From positions 75,647-139,646 of the forward strand of contig CAZNKP010000020.1 in assembly GCA_964573805.1 (NCBI GenBank): 64,000 nucleotides of DNA, in the 5' to 3' direction. The stretch comes from an uncultured Desulfobacterales bacterium (lineage in GTDB: Bacteria > Desulfobacterota > Dissulfuribacteria > Dissulfuribacterales > QOAL01). This document shows positions 28,445 to 44,297 of this stretch, piece by piece (position 1 is the first letter of the stretch; each line of letters starts with the position of its first letter). Below the pieces are notes generated by a model. It made no database searches, was not told the DNA's origin, and saw only the letters and a list, made by a program, of their open reading frames with translations. Position numbers and translations under genes: made by a program.

Positions 28445-28857
28445 ACCTCCACCCGTGTTCCGCCATCAATAAGGCTTGCAACCCTTAGATCATCTGCAAG
28501 GGCATTCAAAAGATTTAATCCCATGCCCATACCTTTATCTTGAGAAAAGCCTGGGGTCATAGCCTCGGCCAGATCGGATATTCCAGTACCCCGGTCTTCA
28601 GCTACCATCCTTACGGCCTTCTTTTCTCCTTCTTGGTAAACTGTTATACATATCTTTCCTCCTTGACTGTGCCGAAGAATATTGTTTCCAAGCTCATCCA
28701 AGATGGTAAGGGCTTCAGCCTGTTTCATCTCGTTTTTTAGACCCAGCCAAGAAAAAAGCTCCCTTAAGACCTTTCTGGCCTTTGTTAGTCCTACATTTCT
28801 AGATACAGGTGTACACCTTTTGGCTATCGAAATTTTATTTTTTACTGTATCAGTCAA
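28429..28857 (-). CDS. RsbT-like serine/threonine kinase (anti-sigma regulatory factor, GHKL)
   Basis: 142 aa. N box ELGNNILRH, G1 EDRGTGI, G2 GMGMGL. TTG start overlaps the upstream STAS gene stop. Confidence 0.8.
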   Translation of the reverse strand: MTDTVKNKISIAKRCTPVSRNVGLTKARKVLRELFSWLGLKNEMKQAEALTILDELGNNILRHSQGGKICITVYQEGEKKAVRMVAEDRGTGISDLAEAMTPGFSQDKGMGMGLNLLNALADDLRVASLIDGGTRVEVWKWI

Positions 28858-29218
28858 CTCTTATTAGTTTGTGTCCCAGTTTCCCAAGCGCCTGTTCTGC
28901 ATCAAGTGCAAATCTTAGGTTGTGTCCAAAACTCATGTTAAAACTTTTCAAGGCGGCAATTGCAGAAGCTCCAAGGCCTGCCACCACTATCTGTGCTTTG
29001 AAAAGTCCCATGGTAGAGGCGAGCTTTTGTATATTTTCTGCAAGAAAGGTATCTATTACTTCTACATCAGATAGATCTACAATTACAGCTTTTGAATTTG
29101 TGGCCCGCACCTTTTCTGCTAGTTCCTTCAGAAGTTGAAGCACCTGTGCATCGTCTATTTCCTCTTGAAGAGACACAAGGAGGATCTTACCAAGATGAAA
29201 TATTGAAAAAGATTTCAT
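28850..29218 (-). CDS. RsbS-like single STAS-domain protein
   Basis: 122 aa. STAS core VIVDLSDVEVIDTFLAENI, with Thr at the position of the phosphorylatable Ser of B. subtilis RsbS. Confidence 0.8.
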   Translation of the reverse strand: MKSFSIFHLGKILLVSLQEEIDDAQVLQLLKELAEKVRATNSKAVIVDLSDVEVIDTFLAENIQKLASTMGLFKAQIVVAGLGASAIAALKSFNMSFGHNLRFALDAEQALGKLGHKLIRVD

Positions 29219-29226
29219 TCAAGACC

Positions 29227-30108
29227 TCAGAGTTCTTGGTTATCTTCCAATGCCTTAATGGCCTTTACCTGTTTTTGGCGCGTTTTGGTTATCTGTTGCA
29301 TGGCATAATGGAGTCCATCTGCCATGCGGCTCCTTACGTTTATGGTACCAAGATCGACCCCAAGGTGGGCCATGGTCAGGGCAATACGTGAAGAGATTCC
29401 TGTCAGGACCGCCTCGCTTCCCATAAGGCGGACTGCATCAACTGTCTGGAGGAGGTAGTTTGCCACAGCAGTATCGACATTGGGTACCCCTGTAATATCA
29501 ATAATAACAAAGGGAGCGCGTGTTGACTCTATTGTAACGAGTAATCTTTCCATTGCGGATTGTGCCCGATGGCTGTCAAGTGTACCAACCAGCGGGAGCG
29601 CCAAGACCCCGTCCCATACTTCGATAACTGGCGTGGAAAGTTCAAGGATTTCTTCTTGCAAGTGGCGGATGTCTTCATCACGTTTTTTTAAGAGTTCTTC
29701 TTGCTGCCTGAGGATGAGCCTTTCCTTTTCAAGACGGTCAGAAATGTCTATGAAATGTTCAACGCAACCTATTATCTCTCCCTGATGATTTTTTATAGGG
29801 CGGCTGGCAAACTCGATGGGTATCTCTTTCTCTCCTACTTTTAAAGTGGTCTGTCCTTGATTGACTGTATTGTTTTTCGTGGCTACCTTGCAGGTACATT
29901 GATCTGTCTGGCACATTGGTGTATGGAATATCTCGTAGCACTTGCGGTCGAAGCAGTCTCCAGGGGTTCTGCCAACTAGTTCTGCCCCCGCCTTGTTAAT
30001 AATAAGTATATTGTTATCCAGGTCTGTTACAAATATGCCCGAGGGAACGGCATTGATTATCTCAAACAGGAATCCTTCATCTCCTTGGTAGTCCTTTAAT
30101 TCAGTCAT
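29227..30108 (-). CDS. RsbR-like sensor: Cys-rich PAS domain + coiled linker + STAS domain
   Basis: 293 aa. PAS (INAVPSGIFVTDLDNNILIINKAGAELVG...), linker, then STAS (PVIEVWDGVLALPLVGTLDSHRA...VIIDITGVPNVDTAVANYLL). Strong AAGGAGGGAGG Shine-Dalgarno upstream. Confidence 0.8.
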   Translation of the reverse strand: MTELKDYQGDEGFLFEIINAVPSGIFVTDLDNNILIINKAGAELVGRTPGDCFDRKCYEIFHTPMCQTDQCTCKVATKNNTVNQGQTTLKVGEKEIPIEFASRPIKNHQGEIIGCVEHFIDISDRLEKERLILRQQEELLKKRDEDIRHLQEEILELSTPVIEVWDGVLALPLVGTLDSHRAQSAMERLLVTIESTRAPFVIIDITGVPNVDTAVANYLLQTVDAVRLMGSEAVLTGISSRIALTMAHLGVDLGTINVRSRMADGLHYAMQQITKTRQKQVKAIKALEDNQEL

Positions 30109-30291
30109 GACCTCCCTCCTTTTGATCGTGTAATAAAAAATTTTAGCAAAAAGGGGGCATTTCGTCTAATAACCGCCCTGTTAATCAAGCAGATAAAAAA
30201 TAAAAAGTTGCATTCGCATTTAAGAAAAAAAGCGGCAAATCCGATGGATTTAATGAAAATAAGGATTTTTAAAGGAGGCTTAAAGATTCTC

Positions 30292-30978
30292 ATGAAAAAT
30301 TATTTAAAAAAAAACTTTTTCTCAAAATCTAAAAGCCAGATGGCAGGTTTTACATTGATAGAGATGGCCATAGTTCTTGTAATTATTGGTATCATCATAG
30401 GCGCTGTTATGAAAGGACGGGATCTCATAAAATCTGCCCAGATCAAGAATGCCTATGAAACCTTTTTTGCTGCCCATTACAAGATGATCGGTTCCTATTA
30501 TGATAAGACAGGAAGAATCTTGGGGGATGGAACCATTAATGGGGGAACTGGTACTAACCCAAATGGTTGGATGGACAATATCGGTCTTTACAATGGAACA
30601 AACAGAAGCAATATCATCAATGCCCTAAAAAGTGTTGGAATAGATGTATGCTCTTTAGTAAAAAGCAACCTTACATCTACCGAATGTGGCCCAAATGGAT
30701 TGAACATTGGCCAGATTTCTCTAGATGGCGAATATGCCAGGCAGACCGTTTGGGTAGGTTATTATTATGCAAACTTTGCCGGAAGGTATAGAAACTATCT
30801 GAGGATCGATAGGATACCTACAGACTTTGCCATCGCCCTGGATAAGATGATAGATGGGGTTGCAAATTGTGCATCAGGTTCCTTTGTTGTCGTTCCTGGA
30901 GAGACCTGTAATAACGGCCAATGGCCTGATGCCAGCTCCACACCCTATGTAAGGGCCGCTTGGATTGTAGAGTTTTAG
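30292..30978 (+). CDS. Type IV pilin / pseudopilin-like protein (probable major subunit)
   Basis: Start set at ATG 30292 (AAAGGAGG upstream). Class III signal MKNYLKKNFFSKSKSQMAG|FTLIEMAIVLVIIGIIIGAV with Glu at +5. About 209 aa mature. Confidence 0.8.
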   Translation: MKNYLKKNFFSKSKSQMAGFTLIEMAIVLVIIGIIIGAVMKGRDLIKSAQIKNAYETFFAAHYKMIGSYYDKTGRILGDGTINGGTGTNPNGWMDNIGLYNGTNRSNIINALKSVGIDVCSLVKSNLTSTECGPNGLNIGQISLDGEYARQTVWVGYYYANFAGRYRNYLRIDRIPTDFAIALDKMIDGVANCASGSFVVVPGETCNNGQWPDASSTPYVRAAWIVEF

Positions 30979-31006
30979 TTTTCCACCAACCACCTCCTCC
31001 TCATAT

Positions 31007-31034
31007 GCCGGACCTGCTAGAAGGCAGGTCCGGC
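31007..31034 (+). terminator. Perfect 11-bp GC-rich hairpin after the pilin gene (attenuator or mRNA-stabilising element)
   Basis: GCCGGACCTGC (31007-31017) and GCAGGTCCGGC (31024-31034) around a 6-nt loop. No U-tract. Lies between the pilin stop and the ATPase start. Confidence 0.45.
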
Positions 31035-31078
31035 CACATTCAAAATACCTGTCCAAATGCTAGCAAGGGTCTGTATCT

Positions 31079-32725
31079 ATGAACAGAAATAAGAAACCAC
31101 TTGGAGCACTTTTAAAAGAACAAGGCCTTGTCACCGAGCAACAGATCCAATTCGCCTTAGCCGAGCAAAAGGCAACCGGGGAAAAACTCGGCGAATGCCT
31201 CATGCGTCTGGGTATAATTACCGATTCGGAGCTTGCCATTGCTCTCTCTAAACAGACAGGTGTCCCCTATATAGATCTCAAGTCTTTTTCGGCAAATAAA
31301 GAGGCCTTGAGAAAGGTGCCCTCGCATATTGCAAGGACCCAGCAAATCTTGCCCCTGCGTTTAAATGGTAATGAAATAGAGGTGGCAACGGCAGACCCCT
31401 ATGATCTCAATGCTACCCAGATAATACTCAGGGCAACAGGACTCAGGGCCAGACTCTTTGTTGCCGCGGAGGGAGAAATCAGGAAGCTGGTTGAACGATA
31501 TTACTATCTTATTGAACATCCTGTTGATGAAGAGATTCTGAAGATTATTCAGATGGCTAGCCAAAGATCCGGTATGGAAATAGACATGACCGGATTGACC
31601 GACCTTATTCTTACCTCGGCAGTTATACAAAGGGCTACAGATGTACATATCACTCCAAGTGATCGTTCTTGCAGGATTATGTTCCGGATAGATGGGGTAT
31701 TAGAGGCAAAGTATGTTTTCCCTTTTAAAATCCACAACAAGATTATAACCAACCTTAAGGTCAAGGCGGGGATGGATATATCCGAACAGAGGAGAGCCCA
31801 GGACGGCCGGATGTCCTTCGAGTTTCTTGGAGACAGTTTTGACATCAGGGCGTCTACAGTAAAGACAAATTTTGGAGAAAACATGGTGCTTAGGCTTTTG
31901 CCATCCAAGGGCGAATCCCTATTAAACCTGGAACAACTTGGTTTCCATAAGGAACAGCTTGGGCTTATTCAGCGTCTTTTTTCTCGTCCCTACGGTATCG
32001 TGCTCATAACTGGTCCTACCGGCAGTGGAAAAACAACAACACTTTATGCAGCCTTGAGGCGCCAGAATGCCATAGAGAAAAATATAGTTACAGTTGAAGA
32101 TCCGATTGAATACCAATTTTTAATGATAAGACAGACCCAAGTCAACACCAAGGCTGGGTATACCTTCGCCTCTGCAATCAGGACCTTTTTGCGTCAGGAT
32201 CCAGATGTGATTTTGGTAGGCGAAATTAGGGATAGCGAAACCGCTTCCCTTGCAACCCGGGCTGCCATTACAGGGCATCTTGTCCTTTCCACCCTTCACA
32301 CTAACAGCGCTGTAGGGGCCTTGGCCAGGCTCAAAGATTTAGATATTTCTCCCTATCTGCTTTCAACTTCTTTGTCAGGGATAATTGCCCAGCGTTTGGT
32401 AAGAAAACTTTGTCCTTATTGCAAGAATCCTTCTCGTCCCACCCCTGAGGAGGCTGCAGCCCTGGATATACCACCTGAGACAGAAATCTTTAGAGAAAAG
32501 GGCTGTAGTCAATGCAGGAATACCGGTTTTATGGGCAGGACAGTTGTTGCGGAAATCCTTAGTTTTTCGGAGGCATTGCTGAAACAGGTGGCTAGAGACG
32601 AACCACTTAGCGAGATACTTTCCACTGCCCATTCTGAAGGTTTCTTGCCTCTTAAAGAGCAGGCAAGACTAAAGGTAATTAACGGAGTAACAAGTCCTGG
32701 CGAGGTAAGGAGGGTGATTGGCTGA
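31079..32725 (+). CDS. GspE/PilB-family type IV filament assembly ATPase with an MshEN-type N-terminal domain (MshE-like)
   Basis: 548 aa. Walker A GPTGSGKTT, Asp box VEDPIEY, Walker B DPDVILVGEIRD, His box GHLVLSTLHTN, tetra-Cys CPYC...CSQC. Two tandem 24-residue MshEN-like motifs in the N-terminus. Confidence 0.9.
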   Translation: MNRNKKPLGALLKEQGLVTEQQIQFALAEQKATGEKLGECLMRLGIITDSELAIALSKQTGVPYIDLKSFSANKEALRKVPSHIARTQQILPLRLNGNEIEVATADPYDLNATQIILRATGLRARLFVAAEGEIRKLVERYYYLIEHPVDEEILKIIQMASQRSGMEIDMTGLTDLILTSAVIQRATDVHITPSDRSCRIMFRIDGVLEAKYVFPFKIHNKIITNLKVKAGMDISEQRRAQDGRMSFEFLGDSFDIRASTVKTNFGENMVLRLLPSKGESLLNLEQLGFHKEQLGLIQRLFSRPYGIVLITGPTGSGKTTTLYAALRRQNAIEKNIVTVEDPIEYQFLMIRQTQVNTKAGYTFASAIRTFLRQDPDVILVGEIRDSETASLATRAAITGHLVLSTLHTNSAVGALARLKDLDISPYLLSTSLSGIIAQRLVRKLCPYCKNPSRPTPEEAAALDIPPETEIFREKGCSQCRNTGFMGRTVVAEILSFSEALLKQVARDEPLSEILSTAHSEGFLPLKEQARLKVINGVTSPGEVRRVIG

Positions 32726-33927
32726 TGAGTTGGTACAGGTATGAGGCCCTTGCCCCTGACGGTACGAAGATAGTTGATGAAGGCCAATTCGGGACCTCTG
32801 CCGAGCTTTATAGGAGCCTTCGGGATCAGGGCTACGTACTGCTTGACTATAAAAAAAAGATATTCAGGTTCGGAAGCCTGTTTCCCGTCAGGATAAAGCG
32901 TGGTGTACTTGCAGAATTTTTCAGGAATCTTGCACTCGTACTGAAGGCAGGAGTACCTTTGGTTGAGGCACTACAAGATATTGCGGATTCACCAGGTGCA
33001 GTAAAGTTCAGGATCGTTATTAAGGACCTTGTACAGAGAATAAGGTCTGGAGAACTTTTTTCCGAGGCCCTTTCCCATCATGAGTCTATTTTCCCAAACA
33101 TAGTTATAGTTCTCGCCCGTCTCGGTGAGGAGACAGGACAGCTTGACAGGACCCTTGAGGATGCTGCCAACCATCTGGAAAGGGTCCAAGAAATTATTGA
33201 TAAGACCAAACGGGCCCTCAGTTATCCTGTCGTAATTTTGACAGCCATGATTGGTGCTTTGGCGTTTTGGCTTATCTATGTGTTGCCAAAGTTGTTTGAG
33301 TTGTTCAAAAGTCTTGGCCTAAAAAAGCTCCCTATTATGACAAGGATACTTTTTTCGGTTGTAGAAGGGGTTAAGGCCTACTGGTTCGTCTTGCCAACGA
33401 CAGTGGTTATTTTGACTGTTTTTGGCATTTTGGCATCCAGGAATCAAAAGCTAAAGCTCTTTTGGGATACCTTGTGGTCTAAGGTGCCACTTGTCGGGAG
33501 AATAATCAAGGCCTCCCAGCTGGCATTCTTTTTTGAATACCTGGCCCTTCTCACAGCTTCTGGCATAGATGTCATTAGAAGTCTTGATGTGATGGAGGGC
33601 GCCATTACTCATCAGATATTGAAGAAAGACATCTCTAAGGTAAAGAAACTGGTACTTTCAGGCTTTTCTCTATCCGAGGCTTTTAGAGAGTGCTCGTTTT
33701 TCGAGGCCTTTATCCTCCGTATGATAAAAGTGGGAGAGACTACCGGCCATATGCCTGAACAACTCAAGATACTGGCAGATTTTTATATGGTAAAGGTAAA
33801 CAGGATGGTGGATTCCATGGCCAAGACCTTGGAACCCCTGCTCATAATATTCGCTGGCATAATATTTGTAATCATAGTTATGGGTCTACTTGGTCCAATA
33901 TATGACATGATGGGGAGTCTCAAATAA
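32725..33927 (+). CDS. GspF/PilC/MshG-family platform protein
   Basis: 400 aa with two T2SSF-type repeats and 3 TM segments. ATG overlaps the ATPase stop (TGATGA). Confidence 0.9.
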   Translation: MSWYRYEALAPDGTKIVDEGQFGTSAELYRSLRDQGYVLLDYKKKIFRFGSLFPVRIKRGVLAEFFRNLALVLKAGVPLVEALQDIADSPGAVKFRIVIKDLVQRIRSGELFSEALSHHESIFPNIVIVLARLGEETGQLDRTLEDAANHLERVQEIIDKTKRALSYPVVILTAMIGALAFWLIYVLPKLFELFKSLGLKKLPIMTRILFSVVEGVKAYWFVLPTTVVILTVFGILASRNQKLKLFWDTLWSKVPLVGRIIKASQLAFFFEYLALLTASGIDVIRSLDVMEGAITHQILKKDISKVKKLVLSGFSLSEAFRECSFFEAFILRMIKVGETTGHMPEQLKILADFYMVKVNRMVDSMAKTLEPLLIIFAGIIFVIIVMGLLGPIYDMMGSLK

Positions 33928-35211
33928 ATGGCACAGCATGTAACCGATTATCTGCAGTGGTTTCATTTCCGGGAACCGCCTTTTAGGCTTTCTCCTGATA
34001 TTGACTTTTTTTTCCCGTCCAAGGCCCACAAACAGGCCATTGAGATCCTGAAATATGGCATAAGCAGAGGGGAAGGTTTTATGGTGCTTAGCGGTCAGGC
34101 AGGCACTGGGAAGACCATGCTTTTGCGTTTGTTGTTAAGGGATCTTCCCGAGGAAAAACAGGCAGCATTTATTGTGACTCCTGCAGTGAGTCCTAGGGGG
34201 CTTCTAACTCTGCTTTTAGAGGAGTTAGACATTCCTATAACTCCTGAAAGGAGGGAGCTTGCCCTTCTTCTGAAAGATTTTCAGGAGCATATAATAGCTC
34301 TGGCCAAAGAGGGAAAGAGTATAGTCATAGTAATTGACGAGGCCCAGGATCTACCACTTGAAACCATCGAACAGTTACGGTTGCTTTCGAATATAGAGAC
34401 CAGAAAGAAGAAACTTGTTCAGATTCTGCTTGTTGGTCAGCCAGAGCTACGCTCTCTTCTTGCAGACCCTAGGCTTTGTCAGCTTACACAGCGTATAGTC
34501 ATAAATGAGATCCTTGCTCCCCTTGGAGAGCAAGAGACTGCAGACTATGTTCAATTTCGTTTATCTAGGGCTGGAGTGGGAGATTTAGGAATCTCAAAAC
34601 AGTTTTTCCCTGAATTACATAAATACACTAGAGGGCTGCCAAGGCTCATAAACAGGGCCATGGACAGGGTGCTTCTTATGGCTGCCGCTTCTGGCTCCAT
34701 GGTTCTTACCCCTTCTCATCTCCATGATGCCATGTCTACATTGCCTGAGCCTGTGTTTCAGCAGGAGATTAGGTCGTATTCAGGGGCAAGGCTGGCTGCC
34801 ATCAGTAGGAATTTGGGGTTTATAGCCATGGGTTGTGGTGTAGGAGCAGCTCTGTGTTTTCTGCTCTTTTCTGGCAATATATTACATCGTACAGAAGGTC
34901 CCTTGCCAGTTAAAGCTGAGATTACCAAGGCCGATTCAGCAATGTTTCCTGTCAAGGTTTCTGTCAAGAGCGTAAAGATTCATGCCCAACCAGCCAAAAC
35001 TTCCCATGTTGTTACCACTGTCAAGAAAGGTCACGGACTTATGGTCTTAGAAGAAAAGGGTAAGTGGTTTAGAGTCCAGGCCCAAAATTCTCAAGGGGAA
35101 GCCTTTAAAGGCTGGCTGCTCAAGAAGCAGGTGGAAAGGAGTTTTAGTGCGATTAATACCTTTTCAAAGAAAGAAGTGGATTGTCCAGAAGGACCACAAA
35201 GGTCAATTTGA
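33928..35211 (+). CDS. ExeA/MshM-like AAA+ ATPase with a C-terminal TM segment and SH3b-like domain
   Basis: 427 aa. Walker A GQAGTGKT and Walker B VIVIDEAQDL. TM LGFIAMGCGVGAALCFLLFSG. C-terminal VKIHAQPAKTSHVVTTVKKGHGLMVLEEKGKWFRVQA...GWLLKKQV resembles bacterial SH3. Confidence 0.8.
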   Translation: MAQHVTDYLQWFHFREPPFRLSPDIDFFFPSKAHKQAIEILKYGISRGEGFMVLSGQAGTGKTMLLRLLLRDLPEEKQAAFIVTPAVSPRGLLTLLLEELDIPITPERRELALLLKDFQEHIIALAKEGKSIVIVIDEAQDLPLETIEQLRLLSNIETRKKKLVQILLVGQPELRSLLADPRLCQLTQRIVINEILAPLGEQETADYVQFRLSRAGVGDLGISKQFFPELHKYTRGLPRLINRAMDRVLLMAAASGSMVLTPSHLHDAMSTLPEPVFQQEIRSYSGARLAAISRNLGFIAMGCGVGAALCFLLFSGNILHRTEGPLPVKAEITKADSAMFPVKVSVKSVKIHAQPAKTSHVVTTVKKGHGLMVLEEKGKWFRVQAQNSQGEAFKGWLLKKQVERSFSAINTFSKKEVDCPEGPQRSI

Positions 35212-36601
35212 CTGTTTGCATGTCAAGGTTTCAGGCCCAAGACTCGAGATCTTAGAGCAGATTACCTGTAAAAGTCCTTCTGAGCTTCCTTTTGATAAGA
35301 TGGAATTGGTTATCCACTCTGAGAGGATTGCCATATCAACAGAATCCTTTCCTCCTATGAAGCAAGAGCTTCTAATGCTCCAAATCGATGAAAGGGTTCG
35401 GCCTGTAGGTCCATGGGCAGAAGACACCATATTACATCATTGTACGTATTTGCTTGATAAGGATTCCAGTCTCAATTCCTTTGTTATTATCTCATTACCT
35501 GAAACGGATATCCGAAATGTTTTGTCTTCCTTGACCGGTACAGGACTTAGGATAAATAGGTGTGTCACCCATGTGGCGGCTGTTGCTGCCCTGGCAGGAC
35601 AGCTTACAGACGAGCCTATAATATCATGTATACTTGACAAATCTTATCTTGAGATCCTGGTTACTGAAAAGGGAATTCCCTACTATTCTCAGATATCTCC
35701 GATAGATGATCAACTTGTAGATTTCGACATAATAGCTCAGGCAGTTTTCAATGTCCGCCAAATTATCGACTCTCGTTTCAATAAGAGTGTCAAAAAAACG
35801 CTCATTTTCAGCAAAGAGAAATTGGATATTCCTGATAAATTAGGGGAGGAAAAGATTTGGAGACCCGACTTCGATTTTGTATCAGGAGGAAATCATGATA
35901 TAGTTTGGCGGTTCCCCCAACTTATAGGGGCCCTATTTGTCCCTAAAAGTTTCGATTGTTTGCCAGAAGATCTTCGTTTTTCTTATCTTATCCAAGACAT
36001 CAATAAGGTGGCTGTGTTTGTCGCCTTGAGTGGCGTGGCAATCCTAGGTGCTTCAGGGCTATACCTTTCTAATCAACATGTGAAGGTCTTGGCTGATTTT
36101 CAGCAGCTCGACTCCTCTGTAGAAAATCGCAAGACAGAATTGATAAAAAAGATGCCAGGAAGAGATGAAGCAAGCTCGGTGGCCCATGTTCTTAAGGTTA
36201 TTAACTCCGTTTCAAAAGAACCTCCTTTAGATGCGCTTCTATATTCTTTGGCTCTTAGTGTGCCAGAGGACGTTATTATAGATGAGATCAAGATAGATAG
36301 AAAGCCAGATCAAAATATGCAGTCACCTGCAGAAGCTCCTAGTCCAGAGATGCTTTCTCAAGAATCCGCGTCTCAACTCGAAGGCCATGAGGCAGACAAG
36401 GCCTTTTTTGACATGCCACTAACTGTCTGGTTGAGATTTTTGACATCTGGAGATTTTCAGCAGGTGAAAACCAGACTTGAAAAAACTGTAGACCTCCTTG
36501 GAGCCAAGTTTGAAGTGAGTAATATCAAAATGGAATATAAGGAAGATACAGGTCAGGGCCAACTTTCTTGCCGCCTGGAAATTTTGGGAGAAGGTGTATG
36601 A
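35147..36601 (+). CDS. MshI-like assembly protein (PilM-like cytoplasmic domain - TM - PilN-like periplasmic domain)
   Basis: 484 aa. GTG start preceded by AAGGAG at 5-nt spacing, overlapping the upstream gene by 65 nt. Single TM (VAVFVALSGVAILGASGLYLS) near residue 300. Function inferred from size, topology and position. Confidence 0.55.
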   Translation: MRLIPFQRKKWIVQKDHKGQFDCLHVKVSGPRLEILEQITCKSPSELPFDKMELVIHSERIAISTESFPPMKQELLMLQIDERVRPVGPWAEDTILHHCTYLLDKDSSLNSFVIISLPETDIRNVLSSLTGTGLRINRCVTHVAAVAALAGQLTDEPIISCILDKSYLEILVTEKGIPYYSQISPIDDQLVDFDIIAQAVFNVRQIIDSRFNKSVKKTLIFSKEKLDIPDKLGEEKIWRPDFDFVSGGNHDIVWRFPQLIGALFVPKSFDCLPEDLRFSYLIQDINKVAVFVALSGVAILGASGLYLSNQHVKVLADFQQLDSSVENRKTELIKKMPGRDEASSVAHVLKVINSVSKEPPLDALLYSLALSVPEDVIIDEIKIDRKPDQNMQSPAEAPSPEMLSQESASQLEGHEADKAFFDMPLTVWLRFLTSGDFQQVKTRLEKTVDLLGAKFEVSNIKMEYKEDTGQGQLSCRLEILGEGV

Positions 36602-37092
36602 AAATTTCCTGGTTTCTTTCTCCAAGATTGTCTTTTGTCATTGAAATTGTAGTTGTTATGGTCTTTTTAGGAGCACTCTACTGGAATCTGAGCACTTATG
36701 CCAAGATCAGAAATCTGAGAGAGGAGATCAAAAAGCTGGAGCAAACGCTTACAAGGCTTGACCGGCTTGAAAGAAAGGTCAAAAGATACAACCGGGTGAA
36801 AGCATCCCTTTTGTCTTCTATGTCAGCACAGAAGCTCAACTATCACTGGGAAGATGTAAGCTTAGAGTTTGGACCTATCGAATTTTCAGATCTTTTAAGC
36901 CGCTTAGAGCTTCTCAATACAGAAATCCAACAAAAGTACCACAAAAGAGGAATATTTGTCCTTACCCAATTCAACACTATTCATCCCGACTCTAAGGCAA
37001 CGGATCAGTCCAATGATACAACAGGCGCCTTTAAGGCAAAAGGACGTCCTGGTTTTGAAATTCGAGGAAGGCTTTTATGTCTATGTCAATAG
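36598..37092 (+). CDS. PilO/MshJ-like bitopic assembly protein
   Basis: Start set at ATG 36598, overlapping the previous stop (ATGA). TM (LSFVIEIVVVMVFLGALYWNL) followed by a coiled coil (IRNLREEIKKLEQTLTRLDRLERKV). Confidence 0.5.
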   Translation: MKISWFLSPRLSFVIEIVVVMVFLGALYWNLSTYAKIRNLREEIKKLEQTLTRLDRLERKVKRYNRVKASLLSSMSAQKLNYHWEDVSLEFGPIEFSDLLSRLELLNTEIQQKYHKRGIFVLTQFNTIHPDSKATDQSNDTTGAFKAKGRPGFEIRGRLLCLCQ

Positions 37093-37538
37093 AGTATGTA
37101 AAAAAGAGCATCCTACAAGCAGCACCAGTTACTTGCCTGGTAATTGGTTCTATAGTGGTCATATATGCTTCTTTATGGGTTAGGCCAATAAGTAACATTG
37201 CTAATGAGCAGATAACTGCTGATTCCCTTGGAATGCTTCCACAAGATATGATCCCAAGGTCATTTTTGGGCACACATAAACATCTTAGCTATGCTAACGT
37301 GAAAGATCCTTTTGAATTGTCACAACTTGACACAGGAGCAAAGGCAGAAGAATTGCCACAGCTAAAACTGACCATGATTATTATCAACAAAAGGCACAAG
37401 ATGTGCAAGGTTAACGGAAAACTTTATACAGAAGGAGAAAAGGGGCCCGATTTCCAAGTAAAGTACATTGGTGAAGAAAAGGTTCTAATAGAAAGACAAG
37501 GTAGGGGACAATGGCTTTTCCTTGCACAAAACAGCTAG
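37077..37538 (+). CDS. PilP/MshK/GspC-like small bitopic protein
   Basis: 153 aa. TM (APVTCLVIGSIVVIYASLWV). C-terminal beta-domain pattern (MCKVNGKLYTEGEKGPDFQVKYIGEEKVLIERQG). GAGGAAGG Shine-Dalgarno upstream. Confidence 0.5.
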   Translation: MSMSIEYVKKSILQAAPVTCLVIGSIVVIYASLWVRPISNIANEQITADSLGMLPQDMIPRSFLGTHKHLSYANVKDPFELSQLDTGAKAEELPQLKLTMIIINKRHKMCKVNGKLYTEGEKGPDFQVKYIGEEKVLIERQGRGQWLFLAQNS

Positions 37539-39184
37539 CCATCAGAAAACAAAAAAGGCGCTCGTTTAATCTGTATCGATATCTAGCGATTATTATTATC
37601 CTTGGTTTCTTTTCCTTAATCTCAGGATGTGCTTTACAGCCAAAAGTGGCAGACTCTGTAGCCATTCCCAAAGAAAGAAAGGCCCCTAATAAAAGACCTT
37701 CTCACTGTCTGATGTCTAAAAGGTCAGATCCAAGTTCTCCTGTCATAAAGAGAGCATCTTTAAAAAAACCAAAACCTAAATTTAAGGAACTTTCACCTCT
37801 GGATATCCAGTTGGTATCCCTCTCGTTTATACAGGAAGATTACAGGTCTATTTTTCAGGCTTTGGCACATGCTGCTGGTCTAAATCTGGTAATAGATGAT
37901 TCAGCAGTAGCTACCCTCTCCCAAGGCAAGAAGCTTACGGCCGAATTCGTGGAACAGCCGGTACGACAGGTGCTGAACGCAGTTTGCAGGGCAGCGAATC
38001 TTGGCTGGGAAGAGAGAGATGGAACGGTTTATATACTGGGTTTTGTGGAGAAGATACTCAATTTGGATTTTATTGCCTCTACCCATAGGGCCAAGGTCAC
38101 TGTTGGAGGTGATGTCCTTGGAGGCCAAGCAGGAGGAGGTGGAGGAGGCTCCAATCAGGGTATCACTGCACAGGGGGAAGGCGAGATCGCAACTCCTCTT
38201 ACTGGAAGTTTTGAAATCAGTGGTGAAACCGCGCCAGGAGCCCTTGATATTTACAAAGAGATAGATAACTCCGTTAAGGCCTATCTTGAGGGTAAGGGAA
38301 AGTATTTTTTGAACCGCAACACTGGAACTTTGTTGGTCCAAGGTCCGCCAAAGATGGTCCAAAGAATCGAAGACTATATTAATACCCTAAAAGAGAAGTA
38401 TCAAAGGCAGGTGCTGATAGAGGCCAGGATCATAGAGGTTGCTCTGGATGAAAGCTCAGAGCTTGGAATAGATTGGAGGCGGCTAACTATAAATGCCAGC
38501 GATAACCCTATTCATCCCAAAGGTACCTCTTTTCAGTTAAGTAGCCAGCTCTTGGAAGGTGCCCTTAGAGAATCCACCATGTATGGTATCACCTTAACCA
38601 ATCCTTACTATGACCTGTCTGTAGTAATCAGGGCCTTAGAACAATTTGGCAATGTTAAAACGCTCTCTAATCCTAGACTTAAGGTGCTAAATGGACAACC
38701 TGCCATGATCAGCGTTGGACAGTCTGTTTCCTATTTGCGTAAGTTTGAGATTATGGTGGATCAACAGCAGGGCTTCCGGAGCGAGACTCCAAATGCAGAA
38801 ATTGCCTCTATCTTTAACGGTATCCTCCTTGGTGTTACCCCAATCATAGATGATAAAGACAATGTAACCTTGAACATGGTTCCTATAAAAAGTGACATAA
38901 TCTCTTTGGAACAAAGAGAGCTTACAGATGGCAACCTATATACATTCCCAGTGGTAAATCTTAGGGAGGCAGCCACTACTGTTAGGGCCCATTCTGGAGA
39001 TTTAGTGATACTTGGAGGACTAATTGAGGAAAGAAGTGGTAAAAATACCACAGGCCTTCCTATCCTTTCGCGTCTGCCTGGTTTTTTAAGTCTCCCATTT
39101 AGTTTTAAACAGAATACAAATAGAAAGGTTGAATTAGTTATTATATTAAAAATAGATGTGATAAAAGATGAGCAAACTGTTTGA
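37511..39184 (+). CDS. Secretin (MshL/PilQ/GspD family), lipoprotein type
   Basis: 557 aa. Lipobox LISGC. C-terminal secretin domain (NPRLKVLNGQPAMISVGQ..., VVNLREAATTVRAHSGDLVILGGLIEE...GLPILSRLPG...ELVIILK). Gly-rich insert AGGGGGGS. Confidence 0.9.
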   Translation: MAFPCTKQLAIRKQKRRSFNLYRYLAIIIILGFFSLISGCALQPKVADSVAIPKERKAPNKRPSHCLMSKRSDPSSPVIKRASLKKPKPKFKELSPLDIQLVSLSFIQEDYRSIFQALAHAAGLNLVIDDSAVATLSQGKKLTAEFVEQPVRQVLNAVCRAANLGWEERDGTVYILGFVEKILNLDFIASTHRAKVTVGGDVLGGQAGGGGGGSNQGITAQGEGEIATPLTGSFEISGETAPGALDIYKEIDNSVKAYLEGKGKYFLNRNTGTLLVQGPPKMVQRIEDYINTLKEKYQRQVLIEARIIEVALDESSELGIDWRRLTINASDNPIHPKGTSFQLSSQLLEGALRESTMYGITLTNPYYDLSVVIRALEQFGNVKTLSNPRLKVLNGQPAMISVGQSVSYLRKFEIMVDQQQGFRSETPNAEIASIFNGILLGVTPIIDDKDNVTLNMVPIKSDIISLEQRELTDGNLYTFPVVNLREAATTVRAHSGDLVILGGLIEERSGKNTTGLPILSRLPGFLSLPFSFKQNTNRKVELVIILKIDVIKDEQTV

Positions 39185-39992
39185 GGCCATAAACAGCCTG
39201 GAGGCAAATACCAGTCAGGTAGTGGTAGAATCGCCATTCGACCCTAAATTATTAGATGTAGATGATGCTGGTGCCAAGACAAAACCAAAGGGAAAGAGGC
39301 TCCTTGTATCAGCAGGCCTCATAGTTATCTTGGCAGTAGCAATAGGCCTTGGTGCGCTTCTTATTCTTAGAAAGATGTCAAGGCCAGAGCTTTCGAATCA
39401 GGTCTTACATAAAGTTCAAACACCTGTATATCAAGCAAATATAGCTGACCATGCTAAGACTACTATTAGGGTTCAAACAGACAACTCTTCTGTATCTGCC
39501 TCCAAAACAAAGACAGGCCTTGGAAAACAAACAGCAAAGGTGGATACTCATAATATAGCCTCGTCATTCAAAGAGATAAAGGGTGCAGGACAAAAGGTTA
39601 AGAAAAAACATAATGAAGGATCAGATATTAATCCCTTACCATCTACTTTAACATTAAAAGATCGCAGTGCCTCTCAAGAGGTACTTGCACCATTGGTGGC
39701 AAATCCGTTAATTCTCAATAGTAGACAAAAACGTCTTTTATACCGTGCTGAAAAGCTTAGAAAATCAGGCCTAGAGAATCAGGCCTTGGCCCTTTACAAA
39801 AAGATATGGAATAAATCTCATAATCCCTTGGTAGCCAACAACTTGGCAGCTATACTTATGGAAAAGGGAGAATATCAAGAGGCCAAAGACATCTTGGAAC
39901 AAGCGATTGACATCTCACCAGGAGACAATGACCTAATATATAATCTGAAGCAGGTTAAAGCTTTCATCAGAGCCAAAGAAACGGCATACTAG
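39168..39992 (+). CDS. Bitopic TPR-repeat protein (MshN-like)
   Basis: 274 aa. TM (LLVSAGLIVILAVAIGLGALLIL). C-terminal TPR-like repeats (ALALYKKIWNKSHNPLVANNLAAILMEKGEYQEAKDILEQAIDISPGD). Confidence 0.6.
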   Translation: MSKLFEAINSLEANTSQVVVESPFDPKLLDVDDAGAKTKPKGKRLLVSAGLIVILAVAIGLGALLILRKMSRPELSNQVLHKVQTPVYQANIADHAKTTIRVQTDNSSVSASKTKTGLGKQTAKVDTHNIASSFKEIKGAGQKVKKKHNEGSDINPLPSTLTLKDRSASQEVLAPLVANPLILNSRQKRLLYRAEKLRKSGLENQALALYKKIWNKSHNPLVANNLAAILMEKGEYQEAKDILEQAIDISPGDNDLIYNLKQVKAFIRAKETAY

Positions 39993-40011
39993 CCCTCAAA
40001 AGAGGTGAACC

Positions 40012-40521
40012 TTGAGCAGCCTTTTTAGGCAGAAAAGCCACAGTGAGGGATTTACCTTTGTGGAGTTAGCCATATTCCTATTGATTGTTGGCCTAATTCT
40101 GGGGGTAGCTGTAGCAGCCTGGAGCGTTCTTGCACAGGGAAGGCAGATACAGGCAGCCAAAAACACCCTCAAAACTGTTAATAACTGTCTTACAGACTAT
40201 ACTGTGATGGCCAAAAAGATATCCGGGACAGAATATTTTTCAAAATTTTGTCAAAAAAATGATCCATGGGGTTTGGAACTAAAATATTTACATGCTCATG
40301 ATACCAATGGGATGAATTGTTCTTCGCCATTAAGCGGAACATTAAGTGTAAAAGTGGCTCCTGGAGATACTAGAAATTCGGTTGCATGGATAGTTATTAG
40401 TGCAGGACCCAACAGGCATTTCGATTATTATATGAGCGGTACTTTGGTAGACTTTACCTCAGGAGATGACGTTTATATCATGTCATCCGATATGGAGATC
40501 CATAATGAAGTATGCCCATAA
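40012..40521 (+). CDS. Type IV pilin / pseudopilin-like protein (minor subunit candidate)
   Basis: 169 aa. TTG start with a GAGGTGA Shine-Dalgarno. Class III signal MSSLFRQKSHSEG|FTFVELAIFLLIVGLILG. Confidence 0.75.
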   Translation: MSSLFRQKSHSEGFTFVELAIFLLIVGLILGVAVAAWSVLAQGRQIQAAKNTLKTVNNCLTDYTVMAKKISGTEYFSKFCQKNDPWGLELKYLHAHDTNGMNCSSPLSGTLSVKVAPGDTRNSVAWIVISAGPNRHFDYYMSGTLVDFTSGDDVYIMSSDMEIHNEVCP

Positions 40522-41104
40522 AGGCCAAGGGTTCACTTTAGTAGAGATAGCAGTTGTATTAGTGATTGTTGGTCTAATTGTTGGGACTTTGGCCCCGTTA
40601 ATGATGAGCATGATAAAAAAAGATAAGCTCAAGAACGGTAGAGATACAGTACAAAGGGCTAGGGACGAAATTATTGGTTATACCATGATCAACAATGGTA
40701 AGCTTCCTTCGAGTATAAATGCGCTTTCTCACAGGCTAGATCCTTGGGGGAACCCCATTTTTTTGATAGTCGATCCAAATCTTCCAAACAGAGATATATG
40801 TAGTGTTAATTTGGGTGATTCTGACCTGCTAAGTATAATCTTTTATCAAGCCTCTGGAGGAGGAGTATGCTCCAATTCCAACATTTTAAACAATATAGTC
40901 TGCATTATCGGTTCGAAAGGACCTGATTATAATAGACAGATAAGCGGTCTTGCCTCACATAATCGGGTGGGAATACTAGACTATGGTTGTCAAAATGACC
41001 TGTTTCCGGCAGATAATGCGGGCCTGTCTAGTAATAGGCCCTTTGATGATATATACGAATACATAAGCCTTAGTGAAATCAAGTCCAGAGTATGCTCACC
41101 CTAG
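40505..41104 (+). CDS. Type IV pilin / pseudopilin-like protein (minor subunit candidate)
   Basis: Start set at ATG 40505 (TGGAGA upstream). Class III signal MKYAHKGQG|FTLVEIAVVLVIVGLIVG. Confidence 0.75.
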   Translation: MKYAHKGQGFTLVEIAVVLVIVGLIVGTLAPLMMSMIKKDKLKNGRDTVQRARDEIIGYTMINNGKLPSSINALSHRLDPWGNPIFLIVDPNLPNRDICSVNLGDSDLLSIIFYQASGGGVCSNSNILNNIVCIIGSKGPDYNRQISGLASHNRVGILDYGCQNDLFPADNAGLSSNRPFDDIYEYISLSEIKSRVCSP

Positions 41105-41307: not shown

Positions 41308-43650
41308 TTATTGAAAAGATGAGACCTTAAATTTTCTTATAATCTTCTCTACCTTCTTGGCCTTGACCTGTAATTCTTCCATAGAATTTAGGGCCCTTTC
41401 TGCTCCTTGGGCATTTTGGAGTGCAACAGAAGCAACTGTATCCATAAGTTTTTGCAGTGCAGAACTTCTCTCTTTCTGTTTTGAGGTACGGTTTGTTATT
41501 TCACTGGAATTAATTACAACCTTATCAACAGTTTCAACTGCTGTCCGTGTGGTGAGGGTTGTGGAGTTGGCAATAGAACTGATGTCGTCACTTAGTCTTT
41601 CCAGTTCCAATATTGCCTTTTCTGCAAGCTGTCGTCTCTCTGCCTGTTTGTTAGTCATATCCACAATAGCGCCAGATTGAAGCTTTAGATTTTCCATGGA
41701 TGATAAGAGGCTCTGGATAGACTTATTTTGGCGACCTGATATGGCAGCGATGCCTACTGTAACCTTACTGCTATTTTCTACAGTATTTAGGAGTTCTCCA
41801 AGGGTTTTTTCGCTTTCTGCAGCAAGCCGAAGTCCTTTAACAACGCTGTCCCGGCTGCCCTGGATAAGGCTTTCTATTTCTTTGGTGGACTCGCTGGTAC
41901 GATCTGCAAGCTTTCTGATTTCCTCAGCAACAACGGCAAAACCCCTGCCATGTTCACCGGCCCTGGCAGCCTCAATAGCTGCGTTAAGGGCCAAGAGGTT
42001 GGTCTGTTCTGCAATATCAGAGATCAGATCGACGATTTCCCTAACTTGCTCCGAGCTTCTGGCAATTTCTTGCATACCTTTAACTGTTTCGCTCATTGCA
42101 GCGCGTCCTTTTTGGGCACTGTCTAAGGTCTGTTTTGCCTGGGCAGCGGCATTGTTTGCTTCCTTGGCCATTTCTTCAAGTTCAGTGGCCATATCATTAA
42201 GGGCCTTAGCTGTTTTTTCAGCGGCTTCAGATTGCTTAACGGCCCTTTCCTGTACCTTTTTGGCAGTATCTCCCATTGCCGCAACAGTCTGGGCCACACC
42301 TTCTGCACCTTCTTTGTTTTGGGCAGATACCTTTGTAATTTGAGCGTTAGTCCTAGCCATCTCCTCAATGACTTGGGCAGCCTCTTTGGCCAACTTTGCA
42401 GATGATTCGGCATGATAAGCAACCTCTTGTGCCGTCTGGCCCATTAATGCCATTCTCTTGCGGACGTCATCAGCCCTTTGGGCCTGCTGAGTGGCGTTTT
42501 CTGTAATGCGTTTGGCAACTTCATAGACCTCTGAGCTTGCCTCGCTGAATTCGGCGGCAGTCTTGATAACGTCTTTGAACGCCTCTTGCAAGCTTGCCAA
42601 GAATTTGTTGACTGATTCTGCCATCTCGCCAACTTCGTCTCTGCTCCTTACTTTCAATCTCTTGGTTAAGTCCATATTTTTGGCAGTAGAATTAAGAAAT
42701 GTTGCTGCCTCAACAATTGGTCGGGCAACATCTTTGTTCAGAAAGTATGCCAAGAGAAGAAGCATAAGAAAGACAACACCATTTGCGATTAGGGTTGGCT
42801 GTAGAAGTTCTTGCATTGATGAAAAAAGTGCATCCTCTGCCACAAAAGATACGGCAAAGCCATCCTTGTTAGTTAGTTTTTTCCATTGTTCCACATAACG
42901 GGATGCAACCGCTATATTGCCATCGTCTCCTTCAACTATAGCTGCTCCTGTAGAGGCGTTTCTGATGGCAGCCCATAACCAATCAGGTGCTTTTGTGCCG
43001 ATTTGATCCTTGGTTGCTGCCATTACGATGATACCAGAGCCGTCCAAGATCAGAAATTGGGAGCCACTACCCCATTTTTGCAGATGGGCGCTTAAAGAAT
43101 CGGGCAAAATAGATGCTATAACATATGCCTTTTGACCAGAAGCGGCTTTTATGTCCTTAATTAGTAGAAAGACTTTCCGACCCTTACCAAAGGGATCTTG
43201 AACTGGCCCTATGAGGGCTGGGGCCTTGCTGCTAGAGACAGAAGGCAACCGTATGCGTTTTCCGAGGAAAGATGAACGGTTAGCAGCTATTACAGAGCCC
43301 CCTTGCACGACAACTAGGCCACTATAATAGGAATATTTTGTAGCCATCTTGGAAAGCAGGCTGTTCGCCCCAGAAAATCCGTTGCCTTCAACTGCTGCAG
43401 ATTTAATGGCGTCTAAGGACGACAGGGTTTCAACATCATTTTGCCTATTTTCCCAGTAACTGTTAAAGGATTCGGCAATCCCCATGGCCACAAGTTCAAG
43501 TTGCTTAGCACCGTCTTTTTTAAGGAGATTATGGATTGAATAAAAATGATAGGCCTGTGTAGCCATGGCCACCAAACCTGTCAAAAATATCAAAAACAAC
43601 ACCTTATTTTGAATTTTCATGTTTTTTAAAGTTGTTAATTGATCTATCAT
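41308..43650 (-). CDS. Methyl-accepting chemotaxis protein with a large periplasmic (Cache-like) sensor, HAMP and a long signalling domain
   Basis: 780 aa with two TMs flanking a ~270-aa periplasmic region. Conserved hairpin tip [43 protein letters not shown] Shine-Dalgarno upstream. Confidence 0.9.
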
Positions 43651-44171
43651 TGGATTCCTCCTGCCACTGAAGAAACACGAATATCTTTGTTATAGACATG
43701 GCCTTTTTGCGATGCCTGGGCCTTGATGCATTCGATTACAAGCCTCACATCAACCATTGGAGCAACTCCAGAATTCGAAAGATAAACATGGCATGATACT
43801 ATCTCTGGTTCTGATATCGCCTTGTCTTCCACACCGTCCCCAAGATCATAGGCATGAATATCTTCGATAGAAGATACCCGATCCACCTTTAGCCCTATTG
43901 ATTCCTGTCCTGCCTGGAGAATGACTACTGTCTTGGAACGACTAGCATGACCTACATGCCCGTCAGACCAAAAGGCAATTACAGGAATCACCTCGCCTCT
44001 AACATTTATTACTCCTGCTACCTTGGGGGTAGAATTGGGCAACGATGTGATGGTAGCAAAACGGACTATTTCCCTTACCTTGTTCAGTTCACAAGCCCAG
44101 CTTTTGCCATCGGCTTTAAATACAAGGGCCTTACCAAGGCTAACTGCCCTTTTTCCGTTATCTTTTGACAA
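43647..44171 (-). CDS. CheW-like coupling protein
   Basis: CheW core ([22 protein letters not shown]...[15 protein letters not shown]). The ORF opens at 44252 with TTG, but an internal TTG at 44171 preceded by GGGAG at 6-nt spacing gives a typical 174-aa size. The stop overlaps the MCP start (ATGA). Confidence 0.8.
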
Positions 44172-44297
44172 TATCTTCTCCCGAAAAGAAAAATTTCTCT
44201 CTTTTTCTTTTCGGTATAAAAAAATAGAACTTAAACAGACAAATGTATTCAAAAAAAAAGGGAATGATTAAGATCGAAACCCTAAGTTAAAGAAATT

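Follow-up and report, generated by a model that had tools for sequence, protein, structure and literature searches.

Type IV filaments of the mannose-sensitive hemagglutinin (MSH) class have so far been studied almost exclusively in Vibrio, Aeromonas and Shewanella. The mandatory genes of the class are mshA, -E, -G, -L and -M; all of its loci are without a prepilin peptidase gene, and they are almost always single loci (Denise 2019). According to the literature, the MSHA pilus is controlled by cyclic di-GMP (c-di-GMP) through the ATPase MshE, and the c-di-GMP receptor MshEN consists of a pair of motifs of 24 residues each, RLGxx(L/V/I)(L/V/I)xxG(L/V/I)(L/V/I)xxxxLxxxLxxQ, separated by a 5-residue spacer (Wang 2016). 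Here we analyze an 11-gene locus at positions 30292-41104 of a 64,000-nucleotide stretch of DNA from an uncultured Desulfobacterales bacterium (contig CAZNKP010000020.1; the whole 64-kb stretch is called the window). We propose, with moderate confidence, that the locus encodes a complete, self-contained MSH-class filament machine, and that a c-di-GMP-responsive adhesive pilus is its most likely function.

The other described system to which the locus must be compared is Pul, which was annotated in Pelobacter and attributed to the Geobacteraceae, with 'two or three pseudopilins' (Aklujkar 2012). The Pelobacter genes are laid out as pulF-pulE-pulM (ATPase)-pulN-pulO-pulP-pulQ (secretin lipoprotein)-pulG-oxpG, and a third pseudopilin gene, tklG, is located elsewhere (Aklujkar 2012). 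Pul has been called a type II secretion system of an 'atypical' kind and is reportedly needed for OmpB export in Geobacter sulfurreducens (Mehta 2006, Aklujkar 2012). Pelobacter also carries a separate canonical msh cluster and a third cluster, 'pih' (Aklujkar 2012).

Gene content and class of the locus

The locus consists of 11 open reading frames (ORFs), all on the forward strand, at the coordinates that an earlier note on this DNA had given for a run of same-strand, abutting or overlapping genes. Their start codons are backed by ribosome-binding sites (RBSs), by the gene calls on the source contig and by ortholog lengths. The features are as follows (aa, amino acids; TM, transmembrane helix; TPR, tetratricopeptide repeat; a slash marks a cleavage site).

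30292..30978 (+): prepilin 1, 228 aa with a 19-aa leader, G/FTLIEM; N_methyl and TIGR02532 matches; preceded by an AGGAGG RBS
30986..30997 (+): CCAACCACCTCC motif, directly 3' of the stop codon of pilin 1 and upstream of the hairpin
31007..31034 (+): hairpin with a 12-bp GC-rich stem and no U tract, between the pilin 1 and ATPase genes
31079..32725 (+): E, assembly (extension) ATPase of the GspE/PilB/MshE family; T2SSE (E = 2e-116) and N-terminal MshEN (E = 6e-20)
32725..33927 (+): G, inner-membrane platform protein of the GspF/PilC/MshG family; two T2SSF domains (E = 2e-49)
33928..35211 (+): M, MshM-type AAA+ ATPase; AAA_22 (E = 7e-27) and SH3_3 (33.8 bits, cut-off 27)
35147..36601 (+): I, 484-aa MshI/GspL-like alignment protein; predicted actin-like (PilM-fold) domain, then a TM (about 288-306), several long helices and a C-terminal domain of the alpha/beta type
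36598..37092 (+): J, 164-aa bitopic protein in the MshJ/PilO position; TM 11-29, a long helix and a small beta-alpha-beta-beta domain
37077..37538 (+): K, bitopic homolog of MshK (153 aa), its C-terminal domain of the GspB type; secretin-associated protein
37511..39184 (+): L, MshL-class outer-membrane lipoprotein secretin; lipobox LISG/C40
39168..39992 (+): N, TM and TPR protein in the MshN position; TPR_19 and TPR_2; TM 49-67
40012..40521 (+): prepilin 2, 169 aa including a leader of 13 aa; starts with TTG, preceded by a good RBS; N_methyl E = 0.003, below the curated cut-off
40505..41104 (+): prepilin 3, 199 aa with a 9-aa leader; N_methyl 23.8 bits, above the cut-off

The resulting gene order is pilin-E-G-M-I-J-K-L-N-pilin-pilin. 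From 5' to 3', the gene junctions measure +100, -1, 0, -65, -4, -16, -28, -17, +19 and -17 nt, and the block is operon-like and translationally coupled. Its base composition is unremarkable.

We assigned the locus to a class by comparing its products with curated models, with reference loci and, by profile-profile alignment, with families built from nine loci. The reference loci were a canonical MSH locus of Aeromonas caviae (L020), an MSH-like locus on a Legionella plasmid (L023), the Escherichia coli gspA-O (L021), hofBC (L022) and hofMNOPQ (L024) loci, and a gsp locus on a Bradyrhizobium plasmid (L025). The A. caviae replicon (NZ_AP026896.1; 4.94 Mb, 18 annotated features) is filed as a plasmid in PLSDB; it is evidently a chromosome with a full canonical msh locus, which is a data-quality issue in that collection.

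The secretin scores 253.6 bits against TIGR02519, the NCBI equivalog model of MshL (cut-off 250.2), and 123-128 bits against the models of GspD, PilQ and the PilN secretin of type IVb pili (T4bP), whose cut-offs are 284-351. By BLASTP, it aligns to MshL with 129 and 121 bits, compared with 75 and 55 bits to GspD and 47 bits to HofQ. In a neighbor-joining tree (338 columns), the window's secretin family, the Aeromonas and Legionella MshL proteins and the secretin of a gammaproteobacterial metagenome-assembled genome (MAG) form a clade with 100% bootstrap support, apart from GspD and HofQ. A T4bP reading was considered, as BfpB is the best PDB match for the secretin, and rejected: the ATPase reaches only 134 bits to BfpD compared with more than 380 to PilB, and the T4bP secretin model remains far below its cut-off.

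The M protein is an MshM-type AAA+ ATPase, sharing 40% identity over 253 aa with Aeromonas MshM and 35% with the Legionella homolog, while E. coli GspA scores 23 bits; its tree (neighbor-joining, 217 columns) groups it with MshM at 96%, apart from GspA. Hydropathy places a TM helix at residues 296-314, between the ATPase domain and the predicted periplasmic SH3_3 domain. This extension is not found in canonical MshM, and the predicted topology resembles that of ExeA/GspA. The K family aligns with Aeromonas and Legionella MshK (hhalign 95%, E = 2e-8), and three of its eight members match the Pfam family T2SSB (best E = 6e-6); the K protein of the window has no Pfam or NCBIfam match. A weaker match, limited to the TPR region, links the N family to MshN (hhalign 90%, E = 1.5e-6). 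The platform protein scores 142 bits to MshG, 130 to GspF and 104 to HofC by BLASTP.

The models of the other classes were not matched at their cut-offs. For a type II secretion system (T2SS), scores against cut-offs were 127.6/351 for GspD, 470/630 for GspE, 248/424 for GspF and 19.7/88.85 for GspG, and the GspC, I, J, K, L and M models had no matches in the locus. For type IVa pili (T4aP), they were 487.7/675.65 for PilB and 122.7/284 for PilQ, and the Pfam families PilM, PilN, PilO and PilP had no matches in the locus. The MSH-like class of this type IV filament locus is thus supported: the secretin is of the MshL class, M and K are of the MshM and MshK types, N matches MshN more weakly in its TPR region, and the ATPase bears MshEN. 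The sequence comparisons likewise support that it is not a canonical T2SS or T4aP locus.

As in other MSH loci, the components are contiguous and come without their own peptidase: no Peptidase_A24 domain was found among the scanned ORFs of the window. The locus has no mshH, mshF, mshO, mshP or mshQ, and the canonical Vibrio/Aeromonas gene order is likewise not that of the window; gene order is not part of the TXSScan definition of MSH. No PilT-type paralog of the E ATPase was detected in the window. The V. cholerae pilT gene lies outside the msh locus. V. cholerae MSHA is reported to use the PilT retraction ATPase (PMC9815625), so the lack of a PilT in the window locus proves little.

These results bear out most of what the earlier note had read from the letters. 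It had named a GspE/PilB-type ATPase, a platform protein, an ExeA/MshM-type AAA+ protein, a lipoprotein secretin and a TM-TPR protein, and the T2SSE and MshEN, T2SSF, AAA_22, lipobox and Secretin, and TPR matches agree with it; the small TM protein that it called PilP/MshK-like turned out to be homologous to MshK by hhalign. Of its statement that the window has no prepilin peptidase, PilT-like ATPase or MshH, O, P or Q, the first two parts also held in the A24 scan of ORFs and the E-paralog search, and the third held for the locus.

ATPase, alignment proteins and prepilins

We now turn to the protein features from which control and assembly of the filament may be predicted. The E ATPase carries a zinc motif, CxxC...CxxC, at Cys 445/448/476/479; such a tetracysteine motif is typical of extension ATPases. 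[quoted passage not shown] Two 24-residue motifs, PLGALLKEQGLVTEQQIQFALAEQ (motif I) and KLGECLMRLGIITDSELAIALSKQ (motif II), are separated by the 5-residue spacer KATGE, and they fit the relaxed motif of Wang 2016 except for a Lys at position 7 of motif I. Their first residues are P and K, respectively, rather than R. The motif I Pro is kept in the window's ATPase family, while Desulforhopalus has an Arg. With Pro and Lys in motif I, c-di-GMP binding by this MshEN domain is therefore predicted, not assured.

The I protein has no Pfam or NCBIfam match. Its GTG start at 35147 is backed by an RBS and by N-terminal conservation in the long homologs. A word-index search returned 10 clusters, and a profile search of 1.84e9 cluster representatives found 98 proteins at E <= 0.001; no Pfam domain was found in any of 10 homologs tested (0/10), and the named members of the family belong to Thermodesulfatator indicus, T. 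atlanticus and Thermodesulfobacterium. In the AlphaFold2 (AF2) model (pLDDT, predicted local distance difference test, 65), an alpha/beta domain at the N-terminus is followed by a TM helix, by long helices and, at the C-terminus, by a second alpha/beta domain. Foldseek searches of the PDB matched this model to PilM (5eou, E = 5e-10), to FtsA and to the cytoplasmic domains of EpsL and GspL, and the model is therefore assigned a PilM-TM-PilN (GspL/MshI-type) architecture. A weak colinear hhalign match to GspL (E = 0.0045) was also found. Against the reference loci, BLASTP gave nothing significant for I, J, K or the globular parts of the pilins.

The J protein likely starts at the ATG at 36598, giving 164 aa rather than 174. 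Its single-sequence AF2 model (pLDDT 69) has a TM/long helix at residues 9-75 followed by a beta-alpha-beta-beta domain. A word-index search for homologs matched J only to itself, and an hhalign comparison of the J and I families for a PilN/PilO-like paralogy found nothing; the position of J is kept in all related loci. The earlier note had described I as a 484-aa PilM-TM-PilN-like protein, with which the AF2 model, the Foldseek matches and the TM helix agree, and J as PilO-like. For J, the topology (a TM and a long helix) and the position stand, and the identity as PilO was not confirmed, the fold search having returned no significant match. The structure predictions that the note had suggested for the products of 35147-37538 thus gave a PilM/GspL-like fold for I and no significant structural neighbor for J.

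The three prepilins have class III signal peptides, MKNYLKKNFFSKSKSQMAG/FTLIEM, MSSLFRQKSHSEG/FTFVELA and MKYAHKGQG/FTLVEIA, and G-1, F+1 and E+5 are present in all three. A scan of the six frames of the window for the prepilin motif found exactly these three, in accord with the 19-, 13- and 9-aa leaders of the earlier note, and their N-termini are RBS-backed. For prepilin 3, a GGAG RBS precedes the ATG at 40505; a start at 40466 would give 212 aa. Mature pilin 1 is 209 aa long and has two Cys pairs, C120/C132 and C193/C206. Paired cysteines are typical of type IV pilins. Pilin 1 is a candidate major pilin, and prepilins 2 and 3 are probably minor pilins. Pilin 1 shares 91% and 77-80% identity with its counterparts in two genomes of the immediate clade (L002 and L010) and 33-43% with those in Desulfolithobacter and Desulforhopalus. 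Prepilin 2 has orthologs in L002, L010 and two further loci (L012 and L016), and prepilin 3 also has orthologs in related loci. Likeness to the Aeromonas Msh pilins is limited to the N-terminal helix, and the best BLASTP match is MshB.

Between pilin 1 and the ATPase gene, the hairpin folds at -25.7 kcal/mol (z = -6.9). The orthologous spacers in L002 and L010 fold to equivalent stems of different sequence, so that the hairpin noted earlier after the first pilin gene is kept as a structure in two orthologous loci. It is probably an attenuator or an mRNA stabilizer that sets or raises the ratio of pilin to machinery transcript. Upstream of it, the CCAACCACCTCC motif is invariant in the window, L002 and L010, and its flanks vary. 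The motif resembles the anti-Shine-Dalgarno sequence at the 3' end of 16S rRNA and could, on this resemblance, pair with Shine-Dalgarno sequences.

Related loci and flanking genes

The relatives of the pilus locus are found in MAGs labelled Deltaproteobacteria or Thermodesulfobacteriota and in cultured Thermodesulfobacteriota. Two MAGs, whose I proteins are 45-53% identical to that of the window, have the same 11-gene order, including the divergent stressosome operon described below. Desulfolithobacter dissulfuricans (L015) has pilin-E-G-M(SH3)-I-J-K-L-N-pilin, Desulforhopalus sp. 52FAK has E-G-M-I-J-K-L-N-pilin-pilin...pilin, and Thermodesulfatator indicus DSM 15286 has pilin/pilin-E-G-M-I-J-K-L-N. 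One MAG locus reads E-G-M-I-x-x-J-K-L-N; in L018, at 11371-13138, the I and J genes are separated by two additional genes of 257 and 284 aa, neither of which has a Pfam match. A third order, pilin-I-E-G-J-K-L-M-N, occurs in a gammaproteobacterial MAG. Secretins from the cultured relatives already bear the NCBI name 'pilus (MSHA type) biogenesis protein MshL'. The conservation of a 9-11 gene block across the phylum implies a functional machine.

The gene order of the window is thus normal across its phylum and unusual only compared with Aeromonas and Vibrio. The order, the absent peptidase and PilT, and the compactness are ordinary for the MSH class or for the phylum. The earlier note had read the locus as MSH-like with a non-canonical order; the class stands on L, M, K, the weaker N match and MshEN, the difference from the canonical order is seen in the Aeromonas reference locus (H-I-I1-I2-J-K-L-M-N-E-G-F-B-A-C-D-O-P-Q), and the order is not supported as a novelty, as it also occurs in cultured Thermodesulfobacteriota. 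The note had itself allowed that the arrangement might be standard in this lineage, and this is largely what we found. The ATPase and secretin trees that it called for place neither protein inside a canonical T2SS or T4aP clade: the secretin falls with MshL, and the ATPase in a clade of its own.

Five features are somewhat new. No curated model recognizes the I or the J protein. I is one fused protein, and its family is small (the 98 representatives above). In the sub-lineage of the window, M has the TM and SH3 extension. The ATPase family forms its own clade, and the locus of the immediate clade is always paired with a stressosome operon (three genomes).

Between the window and L002, L010 and L012, identity is 80-84% for the secretin, 78-86% for the ATPase and 77-91% for the major pilin, compared with 41-59% for I, J, K and N. 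That the major pilin is among the most conserved parts of the operon is unusual. In D. dissulfuricans, the terminal pilin (L015 12403-13317, 304 aa) carries an Ig-like He_PIG domain that is absent from pilin 3 of the window; this fusion suggests a (tip) adhesin.

A domain scan confirmed both flanks given in the earlier note, the stressosome operon that runs divergently and the MCP-CheW pair that runs convergently.

26082-30108 (-): stressosome operon, RsbR (PAS-STAS)/RsbS/RsbT/PP2C-like/histidine kinase, divergent from pilin 1
41308-43650: methyl-accepting chemotaxis protein (MCP), convergent, downstream of the pilus locus
43647-44252: CheW, convergent, paired with the MCP

In each of the three genomes of the immediate clade (window, 26082-30108 on the reverse strand; L002, 870-4908; L010, 636-4678), the stressosome operon lies next to the pilus locus in divergent orientation, and RsbR is 94-95% identical among them, which exceeds every pilus protein. 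None of the more distant relatives that were examined (L015-L019) showed this pairing. From this arrangement, regulation that links stressosome and pilus, for example through c-di-GMP, is conceivable. In the rsbR-pilin 1 intergenic region (30100-30291), the three genomes share two conserved blocks: AAAAAATTTTAGCAAAAA, close to rsbR, and, upstream of the RBS of the pilin gene, AAATCCGATGGATTTAATGAAAA. Upstream of pilin 1, no sigma-54 promoter was seen on inspection by eye, and sigma-70 promoter and terminator scans were at background level, with no clear sigma-70 promoter.

Directly downstream of the stressosome histidine kinase gene lies a gene for a 566-aa protein without a Pfam domain (24403-26103, reverse strand); L010 has a 573-aa gene in the same position. 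In the window, a DUF1318 protein gene follows it (23829-24401). A second MCP gene is found at 22240-23763 (forward strand). A set of RND (resistance-nodulation-division) efflux genes at 14806-21468 (reverse strand) consists of an 814-aa ORF with a fused OEP outer-membrane factor, a 1046-aa AcrB-type pump and a HlyD-type adaptor. At 7759-11878 (reverse strand), two PqiA-family genes are followed by a gene for a 912-aa multi-MlaD (PqiB-like) protein, a set that looks like an envelope-spanning lipid-transport system of the Pqi/Let type. The window further encodes an aldehyde:ferredoxin oxidoreductase, a number of 4Fe-4S proteins and a radical SAM enzyme (38-616, 3061-5251 and 54197-55252), consistent with an anaerobic host.

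Proposed mechanism, alternatives and known systems

The proposed machine would operate as follows. The three prepilins would be processed by a prepilin peptidase encoded elsewhere, as would be any retraction ATPase. A hexameric E would dock on the platform G and on the cytoplasmic actin-like domain of I, and would drive pilin 1 into a filament primed by the two minor pilins. I and J would form an inner-membrane alignment complex that couples the motor to the periplasm, and the filament would exit through the self-lipidated MshL-type lipoprotein secretin L. By analogy with ExeA/ExeB, the MshK homolog, the TPR protein N and M, through its periplasmic SH3 domain, may help to assemble the secretin or anchor it through the peptidoglycan. 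Binding of c-di-GMP to the MshEN domain of E would switch extension on, and the output would be a surface-attachment pilus, as in Vibrio MSHA. The stem-loop after pilin 1 would let the pilin transcript outnumber the machinery transcript. The MshEN motifs with the right spacer, together with the 5htl match, make c-di-GMP-gated extension and surface attachment the most likely function. Gene content, homologies, folds and synteny are what the analysis shows; control by c-di-GMP, adhesion and the parts played by M, K, N and the hairpin are inferred from them.

Several results weigh against an MSH-class adhesive pilus under c-di-GMP control. The nearest published layout, that of Geobacter Pul, has been described as a secretion system. 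BLASTP against the Aeromonas locus found no specific similarity of the window pilins to MshA, and the window has three pilins compared with at least seven in a canonical MSH locus. In motif I of MshEN, a Pro takes the place of the guanine-stacking Arg, and a Lys occupies a hydrophobic position. The E core is 41-43% identical to MshE compared with 41-44% to GspE, EpsE, PilB and HofB. In the tree of ATPase cores (neighbor-joining, 363 columns, with the Myxococcus xanthus PilB and V. cholerae EpsE sequences taken from PDB alignments), the clade of the window family has 100% support and lies outside the gammaproteobacterial MshE pair, and the deep nodes that would relate it to MshE are poorly supported (bootstrap values of 46% and 16%). 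All of the trees, built by neighbor-joining from ungapped columns with bootstraps and few reference sequences, are indicative only. J has no significant Foldseek, Pfam, NCBIfam or hhalign match to known families.

The foremost alternative is a Pul-type secretion machine, in which the three pseudopilins would build a short pseudopilus that drives folded proteins from the periplasm out by way of the lipoprotein secretin, with no external adhesive pilus. The published Pul block is almost the same as that of the window, Pul is reportedly required for OmpB secretion in G. sulfurreducens, and the small pilin set and an ATPase clade distinct from canonical MshE would suit such a machine. MshEN domains are also found on T2SS ATPases, and Pelobacter has a separate canonical msh cluster, so Pul- and Msh-type systems are distinct lineages there. 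However, the likeness to Pul is one of gene order and names; the E/F order is opposite and the published Pul tables have no TPR gene. Pilin 1, with 209 mature aa and two disulfide pairs, is unlike GspG (model score 19.7, cut-off 88.85), and GspC, H, I, J and K are lacking. The secretin falls with Msh proteins of the pilus type, as do M and K, the Desulfolithobacter relative has the He_PIG-fused pilin, and no conserved candidate substrate gene adjoins the loci. We therefore regard secretion as possible, though on balance unlikely. No multicopper oxidase gene was seen beside the window locus, and Geobacter and Pelobacter Pul sequences were absent from the best 120 secretin matches and from the plasmid-collection matches listed. 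A broader proposal combines several of these elements: the window and its relatives would be a distinct, phylum-wide MSH-like subclass of the Thermodesulfobacteriota, marked by an ATPase clade of its own, by a GspL-like fusion protein from an orphan family, by a set of two or three pilins and, in the window's sub-lineage, by a peptidoglycan-anchored MshM; it would belong to the same lineage as Geobacter Pul/OxpG, act as a minimal pseudopilus secretion machine and, in the window clade, be co-regulated with the stressosome via c-di-GMP. As a whole, this proposal is speculative, and we hold it slightly more doubtful than secretion by itself.

Two further explanations appear far less probable. In favor of a filament for DNA uptake, other bacteria use type IV filaments with a small number of pilins for this purpose (Denise 2019), the pul clusters of Pelobacter are reportedly close to genes of DNA uptake and DNA metabolism (Aklujkar 2012), and cinA is found three genes downstream in the window; however, comEA, comEC and dprA were not seen in the scanned window ORFs, the ComG models stay far below their cut-offs and the cinA neighborhood is not kept in related loci, making a competence filament very improbable here. 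We give equally little credence to a decaying or incomplete remnant that builds no filament and is without a peptidase, a retraction ATPase and most minor pilins. It would account for the absence of PilD and PilT from the 64-kb window, for the mere three pilins and for the failure of curated models to recognize I, J and K. Against it, all 11 ORFs are intact and translationally coupled, order and content are kept across distant genomes (in the nearest relatives, E is 78-86%, L 80-84% and I 45-53% identical), and MSH loci never encode their own peptidase (Denise 2019).

The locus shows that anaerobic, sulfur-cycling Thermodesulfobacteriota carry a compact and rearranged machine of the MSH class that has a very small number of pilins. 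In it, the alignment proteins are fast-evolving, whereas the secretin, the ATPase and the major pilin are conserved. Because Pfam and NCBIfam do not recognize the I- and J-like proteins, the annotation of such loci is incomplete. Studying the system in a cultured relative could provide a minimal part list of a secretin-containing type IV filament.

In comparison with V. cholerae MSHA and Aeromonas Msh (Bsp), the locus shares the MshL-class secretin, the MshM-type AAA+ protein (40%), the MshK homolog, the TPR protein in the MshN position, the MshEN-bearing extension ATPase, the GspF-family platform, the single locus without a peptidase and the order of the I-J-K-L sub-block. It differs in its overall order, A-E-G-M-I-J-K-L-N-pilin-pilin compared with H-I-J-K-L-M-N-E-G-F-B-A-C-D-O-P-Q, in lacking MshH, F, O, P and Q and in its pilin number. 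The window I is one fused 484-aa protein of an orphan family, whereas that of Aeromonas is split into three ORFs; M is extended by a TM and, on the periplasmic side, an SH3 domain; the ATPase lies outside the gammaproteobacterial MshE pair, in a clade of its own; and J and the pilins are without detectable similarity to MshJ and MshA. Like ExeA (GspA), the window M would have its AAA+ domain in the cytoplasm, then a TM and, in the periplasm, a domain of a kind that is often peptidoglycan-binding, and the K family matches T2SSB (GspB). Unlike in the ExeA/ExeB system, this periplasmic domain is SH3_3 instead of PG_binding_1, the ATPase domain resembles that of MshM and scores only 23 bits to E. 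coli GspA, and K aligns with MshK, not with E. coli GspB.

The T4aP proteins PilMNOPQ and the GspL/GspM pair resemble the window proteins in predicted structure. The N-terminal domain of I has a predicted PilM/cyto-GspL fold; its TM, long helices and alpha/beta C-terminal domain are like PilN and the C-terminal half of GspL; and the topology of J is like that of PilO/GspM. In contrast, there is no sequence-level match to PilM, PilN, PilO, PilP, GspL or GspM, and the PilB and PilQ scores are far below their cut-offs. The Pul system of G. sulfurreducens and Pelobacter carbinolicus is alike in layout only: its block comprises E and F, a further ATPase (M), three small proteins, the secretin lipoprotein and then two pseudopilins. 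It is found in the former Deltaproteobacteria and is without GspC, H, I, J and K. It differs in the reversed E and F, in listing no TPR gene, in having its third pilin elsewhere rather than at the operon head and in its reported function, the secretion of OmpB. A study in a cultured relative of the window's host could also settle whether Geobacter Pul is a pilus or a secretion system.

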